From the NCBI GenBank assembly GCA_018303885.1, contig JAGVXG010000009.1, positions 27,611 to 91,610 on the forward strand: DNA of 64,000 nt, in the 5' to 3' direction. This DNA comes from Candidatus Pacearchaeota archaeon. GTDB lineage: Archaea; Nanobdellota; Nanobdellia; Pacearchaeales; GW2011-AR1. Position 1 is the stretch's first letter. Every line of letters starts with the position of its first letter. Positions 16,439 through 39,214 of the stretch are shown here, piece by piece. The notes below the pieces were generated by a model that did no database searches, was not told the origin of the DNA, and worked only from the letters and a program-made list of their open reading frames with translations. The translations under genes were made by a program, and so were the position numbers.

Positions 16439-16621
16439 TTAACGCGGATATTTTGGGTGTGAGAAGAGAAACACAAGCACCCCTAATACAATAAAACCTA
16501 ATGCTATCCAAGGTACTAAAAAAGGGTTTAGAAAAAAAAGAAGGTTGTAAGGAGAGAACGCCATCATAAGGATAATCGCAAAACCGATAAGAATTAAAAT
16601 GAATCCCAATAATTTACCCAT
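16439..16621 (-). CDS. small 2-TM membrane protein, paralog family member 1 (60 aa)
   Basis: MGKLLGFILILIGFAIIL... ending in PKYPR. Shares the N-terminal MG(K/R/I)..G.(I/L).(I/L/V)IG pattern and the promoter cassette with the 38.4-39.2 kb copies. Confidence 0.6.
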   Translation of the reverse strand: MGKLLGFILILIGFAIILMMAFSPYNLLFFLNPFLVPWIALGFIVLGVLVFLFSHPKYPR

Positions 16622-16630
16622 TCCTCAGTA

Positions 16631-16656
16631 AGAGAGAGAGAGTTTAAAAATATTTC
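16631..16656 (-). promoter_or_regulatory. conserved promoter cassette: GAAATATTTTTAAA(CT)6, TATA-like box about 20 nt from the ATG
   Basis: Plus strand reads (AG)6-TTTAAAAATATTTC. Near-identical copies at 38672-38698, 38909-38934 and 39191-39214. Confidence 0.6.
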
Positions 16657-16661
16657 GCCAA

Positions 16662-16853
16662 TTAACGATAAACGTAAGCAGGTCTTCTTCGCGTAATATA
16701 AAGGGATACCACACTAACAAAAAATATAAGCATCCCAATAGCAAAATATATTACAGGATTTTGATTAGTAGGAAGAAGTTCCGGATTGGTAAATGGAACA
16801 ATTGCAATTGTTGCGCCTATAAGAACAAAAAGAAATCCTAAAAACCTGCCCAT
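16662..16853 (-). CDS. small 2-TM membrane protein, paralog family member 2 (63 aa)
   Basis: MGRFLGFLFVLIGATIAIVPF... ending in PAYVYR. Same family pattern, but it lacks the (CT)n cassette. Confidence 0.55.
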   Translation of the reverse strand: MGRFLGFLFVLIGATIAIVPFTNPELLPTNQNPVIYFAIGMLIFFVSVVSLYITRRRPAYVYR

Positions 16854-16903
16854 TTAAAATTCAATTCATTAGAATTTAAAAAGTTATCTTTATTAAAAAT
16901 ATA

Positions 16904-17572
16904 ATGTTAACTGAAACACAAGTACGCGACATAAAAAAGCAAATAATCTCGCAGATAGAAGCCAGTTTTCCTGCCGATAAGAAGGATTTTGCCAGAAAAA
17001 GAATAGAGTCAATGAATTCTGAAGAATTTGAAGCTTTTCTTGTGAAAAACAATCTTGCAATGTCACAAACTGGTTCAAACCCGCAAACGACAAATCAAGG
17101 CGTTTCACAACAATGCATTTTCTGTTTAATTGTTTCTGGAGATATTGAATCTCATAAAATTGCAGAAAACGAATATGCAATTGTGGTTCTTGAAATAAAT
17201 CCTGTTTCTCGTGGCCATACATTAATTATTCCTAAAGAACACGCTTTAATTCAGGGAAAAGAAAAAGAAGGCAGCATTAAAAAACTGATGAAAAGCGTTT
17301 CTAGCATAATAAAGAAAAAACTCAAGCCAAAAAGAATTTTAGTATCTAAATCAAACTTATTCGGCCACGAAACAATAAATATAATACCTCAGTTTAATAA
17401 CGAAACCGCCAATTCTCCAAGGCACCAGGCAACACCTGAAGAACTTATTCAGCTAAAAGATCTTTTAACATTCTCAGAAAAAACAGCACGGAAAACGATA
17501 TTAAAAAAACAGCCAAAGAAAATAAAAATCAGGCCAGAAGAAAAAGTTTGGCTACCAAGAAGAATTCCTTGA
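16904..17572 (+). CDS. HIT-family protein with N-terminal extension
   Basis: CIFCLIVSGDIESHKI...NPVSRGHTLIIPKEH is HIT-fold N-terminal consensus. The histidine triad region is degenerate (LFGHETINIIPQ). Confidence 0.6.
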   Translation: MLTETQVRDIKKQIISQIEASFPADKKDFARKRIESMNSEEFEAFLVKNNLAMSQTGSNPQTTNQGVSQQCIFCLIVSGDIESHKIAENEYAIVVLEINPVSRGHTLIIPKEHALIQGKEKEGSIKKLMKSVSSIIKKKLKPKRILVSKSNLFGHETINIIPQFNNETANSPRHQATPEELIQLKDLLTFSEKTARKTILKKQPKKIKIRPEEKVWLPRRIP

Positions 17573-38450: not shown

Positions 38451-38663
38451 TCACTGATAGGCATAAGGGTATTTTTTCTTCATGTATACGCCAATGCCAA
38501 TAAAGAGTAAGGCCCCACCTATTATCACAAACCACATGGTACTCATATCTTCAAAAAAAGGTGTTGAGTCATTGTACCCAAAAATACCTTGGTAAATTCC
38601 AAAAGGGAGAAGCATTACACCGACTCCAATCAAAATAAGAATAACCCCAAAAATTTTCCCCAT
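38451..38663 (-). CDS. small 2-TM membrane protein, family member 3 (70 aa)
   Basis: MGKIFGVILILIGVGVMLLPF... ending in KKYPYAYQ. Preceded by the conserved promoter cassette. Confidence 0.6.
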   Translation of the reverse strand: MGKIFGVILILIGVGVMLLPFGIYQGIFGYNDSTPFFEDMSTMWFVIIGGALLFIGIGVYMKKKYPYAYQ

Positions 38664-38671
38664 AACATTCT

Positions 38672-38698
38672 AGAGAGAGAGAGTTTAAAAATATTTTC
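38672..38698 (-). promoter_or_regulatory. conserved TATA-(CT)6 promoter cassette
   Basis: (AG)6-TTTAAAAATATTTTC on the plus strand. The TATA-like box lies 20 nt from the ATG at 38663. Confidence 0.6.
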
Positions 38699-38701
38699 TT
38701 T

Positions 38702-38899
38702 TTAACGTGGGGGGTAGAATCTTGGCCTATGAGAAATATAAGCTCCGACCAATATTATAATTACTCCTATCGCGACTAGAATCATAGATGTTCCAGAGAT
38801 TACACAAAAATTTAGAAATTCTGGCGCGAAATCAGCATAAGGAAGGAGGAGAATAAATATTCCAACAACTACAATGAATGGTCCAGTAAAAATTCCCAT
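38702..38899 (-). CDS. small 2-TM membrane protein, family member 4 (65 aa)
   Basis: MGIFTGPFIVVVGIFILLLPY... ending in RFYPPR. Confidence 0.6.
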   Translation of the reverse strand: MGIFTGPFIVVVGIFILLLPYADFAPEFLNFCVISGTSMILVAIGVIIILVGAYISHRPRFYPPR

Positions 38900-38908
38900 C
38901 CCCTATCA

Positions 38909-38934
38909 AGAGAGAGAGAGTTTAAAAATATTTC
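38909..38934 (-). promoter_or_regulatory. conserved TATA-(CT)6 promoter cassette
   Basis: (AG)6-TTTAAAAATATTTC on the plus strand. 21 nt lie between the TTTAAAAA box and the ATG at 38899. Confidence 0.6.
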
Positions 38935-38983
38935 TTTTATTGAGTTGATATAAATTTTTAAGAAGAAAAAATTAGGTAATCTA

Positions 38984-39181
38984 CTAACGCGGGGGCATAA
39001 GGTACTGGACATTTTTAAGTGCTAAAAACCCAAGTATAGTCATAACGACTCCAAGTATTATGTCAAAAAAGTCACCAGTTGTTTGCCCTATAATTGGAAG
39101 ATTAGGCGAAGCAAAACCAACATAAATATTAAGTATTGCGCCAAGAATTATTATGTATATCAATACTTTTGCTATTCCCAT
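38984..39181 (-). CDS. small 2-TM membrane protein, family member 5 (65 aa)
   Basis: MGIAKVLIYIIILGAILNIYV... ending in YLMPPR. Confidence 0.55.
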   Translation of the reverse strand: MGIAKVLIYIIILGAILNIYVGFASPNLPIIGQTTGDFFDIILGVVMTILGFLALKNVQYLMPPR

Positions 39182-39190
39182 CTCTCAACT

Positions 39191-39214
39191 AGAGAGAGAG
39201 TTTAAAAATATTTC
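39191..39214 (-). promoter_or_regulatory. conserved TATA-(CT)5 promoter cassette
   Basis: (AG)5-TTTAAAAATATTTC on the plus strand, which is one dinucleotide unit fewer than the other copies. Confidence 0.6.

Follow-up and report, generated by a model that had tools for sequence, protein, structure and literature searches.

Four of five genes for small proteins with two transmembrane (TM) helices in a 64,000-nucleotide stretch of the genome of a Candidatus Pacearchaeota archaeon (assembly GCA_018303885.1, contig JAGVXG010000009.1, positions 27,611 to 91,610; the whole stretch is referred to as the window) are preceded by a near-identical promoter cassette, in which five or six CT dinucleotides directly follow the TATA box. 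This cassette is a promoter class for envelope proteins, serving the two-TM family in the genus of this archaeon and secreted proteins in sister genera. The reading favoured here, to which a probability of roughly 0.55 is given, is that the CT spacer of this class sets the register between TATA box and ATG and becomes a slippage-driven tuner or switch of expression once it is expanded, with the copies in the window representing short and fixed settings.

Anatomy, conservation and cargo of the cassette

All five open reading frames (ORFs) that a sequence-only reading of the window had pointed out are found, all of them on the minus strand, and the four near-identical cassettes described with them carry 6, 6, 6 and 5 CT units as had been counted (Table 1). 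Equally, the TATA-like box, which had been placed 19-21 nucleotides (nt) from the ATG, is measured with its TTTAAA core at 21, 20, 21 and 19 nt. The fifth gene, encoding the 63-residue protein that ends in YVYR, possesses the same TTTTTAAA box 21 nt from its ATG, with the CT repeat being absent. In the window GAAATATTTTTAAACTCTCTCT has four matches (three exact, one with one mismatch) compared to a chance expectation of 0.01, and a search for further copies throughout the 720-kb, 17-contig genome recovers solely these four copies of GAAATATTTTTAAA(CT)5-6, with no unrelated gene of the genome carrying the cassette.

Which part of the cassette is special can be judged from the promoter geometry of 416 genes with a free upstream region, as derived from crude gene calls. 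In 69 of these genes the distance from the end of TTTAWA to the ATG is exactly 23 nt, and in a second class TTTTTAAA ends 21 nt before the ATG; both classes thus have an 8-bp box at 21 nt from the ATG with an A-rich transcription factor B (TFB) recognition element (BRE) on its 5' side, so that leaderless geometry is the rule in this organism. The consensus promoter of the genome is GAAATA followed by TTTTTAAA (for a summary of archaeal promoter anatomy and elements, see PMC7289017). The BRE/TATA half of the cassette is merely this consensus leaderless promoter of the organism and the CT tract alone is distinctive, with CTCTCT occurring in 0 of 67 canonical generic spacers. The leaderless mRNAs that had been deduced from the TATA-to-ATG distance consequently fit the geometry, but as a genome-wide feature and not as a property of the family, and the view of the cassette as a special regulatory element holds for its CT tract but not for its BRE/TATA half. 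Two candidate features of these promoters were discarded. Shine-Dalgarno (SD)-like GAGG or GGGG just 5' of the ATG is, judged by sequence, too close to the start codon (0-1 nt) to serve as a ribosome-binding site. A promoter class specific for an alternative TFB or TATA-binding protein (TBP) does not agree with the one TBP and one TFB present in the genome (85% complete). The single TFB gene is split over the end of contig C14 and the start of contig C5; as the two fragments overlap by 297 nt with 91.6% nucleotide identity and one amino-acid difference, they represent one gene, with strain heterogeneity probably having broken the assembly.

The rarity of such tracts extends beyond promoters. 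Dinucleotide repeats of at least five units amount to six in the 720 kb, four of them in the cassettes, one a (GA)13 in a reverse-transcriptase gene and one a (GT)5, and no (AT) repeat of at least five units occurs in the genome despite an A+T content of 65%. The genome strongly avoids dinucleotide repeats. The failure to detect a homologue of MutS or NucS in this 85% complete genome fits this general repeat avoidance as well as an instability of the few repeats present.

Table 1. Two-TM family genes and their promoters in the window (HMM, hidden Markov model; positions are those of the window)
Feature	Positions	Strand	Basis or composition
60-residue two-TM family gene, tail ...HPKYPR	16439..16621	minus	ORF and family HMM matches; identical to cluster representative P0010
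CT-cassette promoter of the 60-residue gene	16622..16656	minus	9-nt spacer 16622-16630; (CT)6 16631-16642; TATA box TTTTTAAA 16643-16650; BRE-like GAAATA 16651-16656; box to ATG 21 nt
63-residue two-TM family gene, tail ...RRRPAYVYR, without CT repeat	16662..16853	minus	ORF and family HMM
Symmetric bidirectional leaderless promoter	16854..16903	both	21 nt, palindromic box TTTAAAAA/TTTTTAAA 16875-16882, 21 nt
70-residue two-TM family gene, tail ...KKKYPYAYQ	38451..38663	minus	ORF, family HMM; AlphaFold2 model a helical hairpin
CT-cassette promoter of the 70-residue gene	38664..38697	minus	8-nt spacer; (CT)6 38672-38683; TATA box 38684-38691; AAAATA 38692-38697; box to ATG 20 nt
65-residue two-TM family gene, tail ...HRPRFYPPR	38702..38899	minus	ORF and family HMM
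CT-cassette promoter of the FYPPR gene	38900..38934	minus	9-nt spacer TGATAGGGG; (CT)6 38909-38920; TATA box 38921-38928; GAAATA 38929-38934; box to ATG 21 nt
65-residue two-TM gene, tail ...YLMPPR	38984..39181	minus	ORF; member by architecture and promoter only; close variant P0015 exists elsewhere
CT-cassette promoter of the LMPPR gene	39182..39214	minus	9-nt spacer AGTTGAGAG; (CT)5 39191-39200; TATA box 39201-39208; GAAATA 39209-39214; box to ATG 19 nt

Within the genome, the cassettes agree in as many as 30 bases and the proteins are 22-40% identical. The cassette (as a 19-22-mer) exists in six or more further species of the genus, nearly always upstream of a family gene, and it is identical between species whose orthologous ORFs have a synonymous divergence (dS) of 0.5-1.1, with synonymous sites near saturation. 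In orthologues at dS 0.51, for example, the 22 bases of AATATTTTTAAA(CT)5 are identical, and the nine bases before the ATG differ at 4 positions. As such identity across species is beyond the reach of gene conversion in one genome, it demonstrates selection on the cassette, and the CT tract, being under selection, is functional. The claim of a much stronger conservation of the cassette compared to the coding sequences is thereby upheld, with selection as the cause. On the other hand, the genes are located in tandem arrays and the high identity of the cassettes next to diverged proteins within the genome is what conversion would give, such that the tract might be a functionless neutral microsatellite copied along with a strong promoter and its genes by duplication or gene conversion. 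This explanation is improbable, as conversion fails to account for the identity between species at dS 0.5-1.1 and for the cassette at unrelated secreted-protein genes of other genera, and as the genome otherwise avoids dinucleotide repeats.

A scan of public genome and metagenome collections for ATATTTTTAAA followed by at least four CT units yielded 106 loci, among them 19 distinct family-linked promoters and several more that are cut or below threshold. Matches of the cassette 19-mer in bacteria and elsewhere were rejected; all of them have (CT)4 and no gene structure downstream, and they are therefore taken as chance. In DPANN-like contigs from four other genera of the same taxonomic family, the cassette is located before unrelated genes of 225-667 codons, the Cys-rich products of which start with similar signal peptides (MK..GLFLLSFVL...; loci L130, L170, L174, L169, L172, L152 and L104), one protein containing a Mucin2_WxxW domain and one a DUF4215 repeat. 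With 1-4 cassette copies per genome, the entire cargo consists of two-TM membrane proteins or of Cys-rich proteins with a signal peptide. The distinction between the cassette and a generic promoter, which the sequence-only reading had left to be decided, hence stands in this genome, but the cassette is not exclusive to the two-TM family. At L130 the first 20 nt of the ORF are common to two different loci and the public contig is apparently chimeric there. There are hints that the promoter together with the 5' end encoding the signal peptide is a recombining module.

Spacing and stability of the CT tract

In the favoured reading, each family gene would be transcribed from its own promoter as a leaderless mRNA. 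The cassette is composed of the consensus BRE/TATA element AATATTTTTAAA and, directly adjoining, a (CT)n tract, with which the spacer between TATA box and start begins, and RNA polymerase would be expected to start about 22 nt past the box, as extrapolated from the genome-wide geometry. Given the fixed TATA-to-ATG distance of 21 nt in this lineage, each CT unit gained or lost shifts the start codon by 2 nt with respect to the transcription start. At a spacing of 21 nt the mRNA would begin at the AUG and at 23 nt it would acquire a 2-nt leader; at 19 nt transcription would start inside the codon, unless the polymerase or the TBP register adjusts, and spacings of 27-45 nt would create a CU-rich leader that lacks a ribosome-binding site. 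The CT tract is an intrinsically slippage-prone microsatellite. Tracts of 4-7 units are stable and would then represent fixed, gene-specific settings, as might be the 19, 20, 21 and 21 nt in the window, and expanded tracts of at least 8 units, which in relatives are hypervariable between samples, should grade or switch expression like a contingency locus.

The overall tract length ranges from 4 to 19 units. Tabulated as pairs of CT units and post-tract nucleotides, the 19 family-linked promoters comprise (CT)4 with 13 nt (2 promoters), (CT)5 with 9 nt (8) or 11 nt (4), (CT)6 with 8 nt (2) or 9 nt (2) and (CT)7 with 9 nt (1), which corresponds to TATA-to-ATG spacings of 19 nt (8), 20 nt (2), 21 nt (8) and 23 nt (1). 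Cargo-linked promoters have mostly (CT)7 with 9 nt, that is, 23 nt. Among paralogues, related post-tract 9-mers go along with different CT counts (TGATAGGGG with (CT)6, TAATAGGGG with (CT)7 and TGATAAGAG with (CT)5), showing that the repeat number has changed between fixed flanks in evolution.

A first spacing test of canonical versus non-canonical promoters failed to reach significance (p = 0.21), with overlapping box matches blurring the generic distribution, and reliance was therefore placed on an internal control provided by the HIT-family gene. In the window the promoter at 16854-16903 is common to the 63-residue gene on the minus strand and the HIT-family gene on the plus strand, which starts at 16904 and whose promoter belongs to the class with TTTAWA at a spacing of 23. 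The interval between the aEF-1beta and HIT-family genes holds family genes in many species, as at 16.4 kb in the window. At no fewer than 11 distinct loci of relatives, the distance between the shared palindromic box and the start of the HIT gene is exactly 21 nt, with the CT-bearing side having 19, 21 or 23 nt. The constancy of the HIT side and the window's palindromic box, which serves two genes with 21 nt on each side, might also be taken to mean that the tract serves the other strand, where it would be an (AG)n in the BRE position of the palindromic box and drive the divergent HIT gene of relatives or, in tandem arrays, antisense RNAs into the upstream paralogue. Such a role is still a little less probable than that of a functionless hitch-hiker: none of the four window cassettes has a divergent gene, the reverse direction entering the 3' end of a co-directional gene, (AG)n fits the local A-rich BRE consensus worse than does the GAAATA side, and most cargo-linked cassettes lack a divergent partner, which exists in 18 of 73 distinct contexts of TTTTTAAA with at least four CT units, a count that includes chance bacterial matches, several of the 18 being such.

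Tract stability was compared between samples on the basis of assembled contigs only, the compared alleles being those of the dominant contig per sample. At the long-tract locus L130 of another genus, which has a secreted protein as cargo, the reference contig has (CT)8. The tract is longer by CTCT in sample X33 (2021; (CT)10), by CTCTCT in sample X29 (2025; (CT)11) and by CTCTCTCT in sample X31 (2025; (CT)12), and in sample X34 the contig breaks inside a longer tract. The flanks show 0-3 mismatches over approximately 350 nt across these samples, and in the representative genome of the genus the corresponding tract is (CT)19, flanks and signal peptide being the same. A family-linked (CT)5 tract is spanned gap-free in the samples in which the L130 tract varies. 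Instability is thus real and dependent on length, with short tracts being fixed and tracts of at least 8 units being variable. The organisms that harbour the (CT)11 locus L091 and the family-linked (CT)7 locus L012 of a sister species were barely present in the samples examined.

Several observations weigh against the CT tract as a tuner or switch. The three tracts of the 38.4-kb locus are gap-free identical in the dominant contigs of 8 groundwater and sediment samples; among pairs of loci whose flanks are 90% identical or more, none differs in CT number and 238 agree; and orthologues retain (CT)5 despite diverged flanks. According to these data the window copies behave as fixed elements and not as switches, and the dinucleotide slippage that had been suggested to tune their expression takes place in the promoter class, at the long-tract locus, but the 5-6-unit tracts of the window showed no change in length in the 8 samples. 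Equally, the variation at L130 is one between dominant alleles of samples and could reflect closely related strains rather than switching in a clone. Metatranscriptomes of the same studies contained no RNA of the organism across 12 kb. Finally, 19 nt is, tied with 21 nt, the commonest family spacing (8 of 19), yet few generic promoters have it. This would mean that many copies are set 'off' or, alternatively, that another spacing rule applies to the cassette promoter, for which it can be speculated that the long AT run AATATTTTTAAA may let TBP bind in shifted registers.

The main rival to a register-setting spacer is an operator. Archaeal repressors usually bind between the TATA box and the start, precisely where the tract is located, and a dedicated DNA-binding regulator might use it to co-regulate a small envelope regulon, with length variation being a tolerated by-product. 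In agreement with an operator, AATATTTTTAAACTCTCTCT is invariant across species and unrelated cargo, and family promoters without a perfect repeat keep a TCTC-rich segment in place (6 of 10 versus 13 of 67 generic promoters, p = 0.012, post hoc). However, the tract is non-palindromic and 8 to 38 bp long, a candidate regulator linked to the loci was not found among neighbours that consist of aEF-1beta, the HIT-family gene, an XPF-like nuclease and LigT, and generic spacers show no TCTC enrichment ahead of genes for membrane or secreted proteins (p = 0.55), a result that also led to the dismissal of a broad TCTC envelope regulon among ordinary promoters. With these arguments considered, a mainly operator function is unlikely, if distinctly less so than the hitch-hiking and other-strand explanations; in fact, a register role and an operator role of the tract are compatible and do not exclude each other.

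Two simple-sequence tracts outside the window were also inspected. The (GA)13 on the coding strand of a YVDD-motif reverse-transcriptase gene (contig C11:46562-46587; locus L045, 763-788) splits this gene into the overlapping ORFs 47168-46518 and 46608-46027, the frames of which are 2 nt apart, and one unit less would fuse both; a frameshift switch, a pseudogene and an assembly error are all conceivable. For testing repeat instability independently this locus was uninformative, as unitigs break at the repeat in 4 of 4 samples and k-mers of other organisms swamp the region. A G17 run just before the window (contig C5:27335-27380) follows 29 N and was discounted as a scaffold gap with a poly-G sequencing artefact.

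The family of small two-TM proteins

The five ORFs are genuine genes of a lineage-specific family of helical-hairpin membrane proteins of approximately 60-70 residues. With leave-one-out HMMs, four of the five are the best non-training match among all 4185 ORFs of the genome (E-values of 3e-6 to 4e-3). The LMPPR protein is not matched by family profiles lacking it, including a profile of 30 sequences, and its membership is assigned only by size, MG start, two-TM architecture, PPR tail, tandem position and cassette; the proposed paralogy of all five hence applies to four by profile and to the fifth by architecture and promoter. Searched against 1.84 billion cluster representatives, a 12-sequence profile delineates a family of 31 representatives, all 58-82 residues long and matched end to end, with the signature MG(K/R)GxG(V/I)(I/L)L..G, a variable loop, a second glycine-rich helix and the tail FSRPK(Y/P)PRY. 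Family members are present in 9 of 42 genomes of the genus, so conservation of the small ORFs in relatives, which had been considered a prerequisite for their relevance, is observed. Ratios of nonsynonymous to synonymous divergence (dN/dS) of 0.16, 0.37 and 0.21 in orthologue pairs indicate purifying selection acting on the two-TM protein.

None of the five proteins reaches the threshold of a Pfam or NCBIfam model. DUF3185 and similar two-TM hairpin families resemble the family in their approximately 60 residues, two glycine-rich TM helices and short loop, but the family of the window is set apart by an MG(K/R) start and an RPKYPRY tail of its own, and scores remain below cut-off, as with DUF3185 against the 70-residue protein (E = 2.1, below the Pfam gathering threshold). 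The family is narrow and absent from the output of gene callers and from domain databases. Using the family alignment, AlphaFold2 predicts a helical hairpin for the 70-residue protein with helices at residues 2-28 and 40-61 (mean predicted local distance difference test score, pLDDT, of 73). The loops of the family are net acidic and the tails net basic, and by the positive-inside rule both termini would therefore be cytoplasmic (N-in/C-in). A short, variable acidic and aromatic outer loop would then be exposed, with a conserved basic, Pro- and Tyr-containing cytoplasmic tail (consensus FSRPKYPRY) that might act as an anchor. Very tentatively, the two-TM proteins may best be regarded as small, abundant constituents of the envelope and as such part of the cell-surface repertoire of an attached symbiont. 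A prepilin-type or N-myristoylation signal at the MGK start was rejected, as the motifs misfit upon inspection.

Other genera of the same taxonomic family possess weak cousins only, which have a different tail (VPIY..GKK.VGYRR), an SD-like GAGG and no cassette. In L159, L161, L164 and L165 these cousins are two-TM proteins of 81-90 residues with the C-terminal motif (E)VPIY..GKK(I/V)VGYRR, the genes of which have the SD-like GAGG 6-7 nt 5' of the ATG in place of the leaderless CT cassette; again no Pfam model is at threshold, DUF3185 reaching 22.9 bits compared to a cut-off of 25.3 bits. A possible sixth, divergent member of the family is encoded in the genome itself about 12.5 kb before the start of the window (contig C5:14814-15062, minus strand). 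This 82-residue protein has a Pro/Met/Gly-rich N-terminal extension followed by two TM helices and the end ...VIRPRY, and its gene has a canonical promoter, in which TATCTTTC forms part of the 21-nt spacer; its match to the profiles is borderline (E-values of 1e-4 to 0.3).

Known repeat-controlled genes and significance

Repeat-slippage phase variation is central to the way in which bacteria interact with hosts. Among known systems, the closest are bacterial promoter-spacer loci such as the (TA)n between the -35 and -10 elements of the divergent hifA/hifB fimbrial promoters of Haemophilus influenzae, with poly-G/poly-C in Neisseria porA/opc and poly-A in Mycoplasma vlp promoters as further examples. 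As in these loci, a simple repeat in the core promoter has a length that would set a critical spacing, surface or envelope genes, often from multi-copy families, are attached to it, and hypervariability depends on length, here in a comparison between samples; like hifA/hifB, the promoter is bidirectional in many relatives. Unlike in the bacterial loci, the promoter is of the archaeal TBP/TFB type with the repeat separating the TATA box from a leaderless start codon, the CT repeat would shift the transcription start relative to the AUG and not the fit of sigma-factor contacts, and the window copies are short and stable. The CT repeats of Helicobacter pylori oipA, sabA and hopZ have the same unit, an envelope cargo and similar numbers (about 5-12), but are located in the 5' coding region and act by frameshift, whereas the cassette tract precedes the start codon and is not translated. 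Archaeal operators, as bound by MDR1, Phr, LrpA and TrmB-type repressors, share the promoter position and the conservation over a gene set; the known ones are dyad-symmetric and of fixed length, though, in contrast to a non-palindromic, variable tract with housekeeping neighbours and no regulator found at the loci.

The archaeal distribution of phase variation has been considered a question for the future in a 2025 review (PMC11868660), and contingency loci are stated in general terms to be known in archaea in one preprint. Literature searches retrieved no account of an archaeal core promoter that contains a repeat. A more far-reaching interpretation than the register-setting spacer, attractive but rated below even odds, would be that archaeal simple-sequence contingency promoters exist in leaderless DPANN archaea, in which a (CT)n tract between TATA box and start codon fixes the register of transcription start and AUG, slippage during replication, unopposed by mismatch repair, switches or grades individual envelope proteins, and the promoter with a similar signal-peptide 5' end forms a portable module across genera, located before variable secreted proteins and before the private two-TM family.

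DPANN archaea live attached to other cells and have tiny genomes. They appear to lack mismatch repair, and a heritable yet changeable control of the envelope would, if true, be a cheap substitute for regulators. Equally, the natural allelic series from (CT)4 to (CT)19 is a probe of how RNA polymerase measures from the TATA box and of the tolerance of leaderless genes for short leaders. In addition, a family of small membrane proteins overlooked by gene callers and domain databases has been defined.

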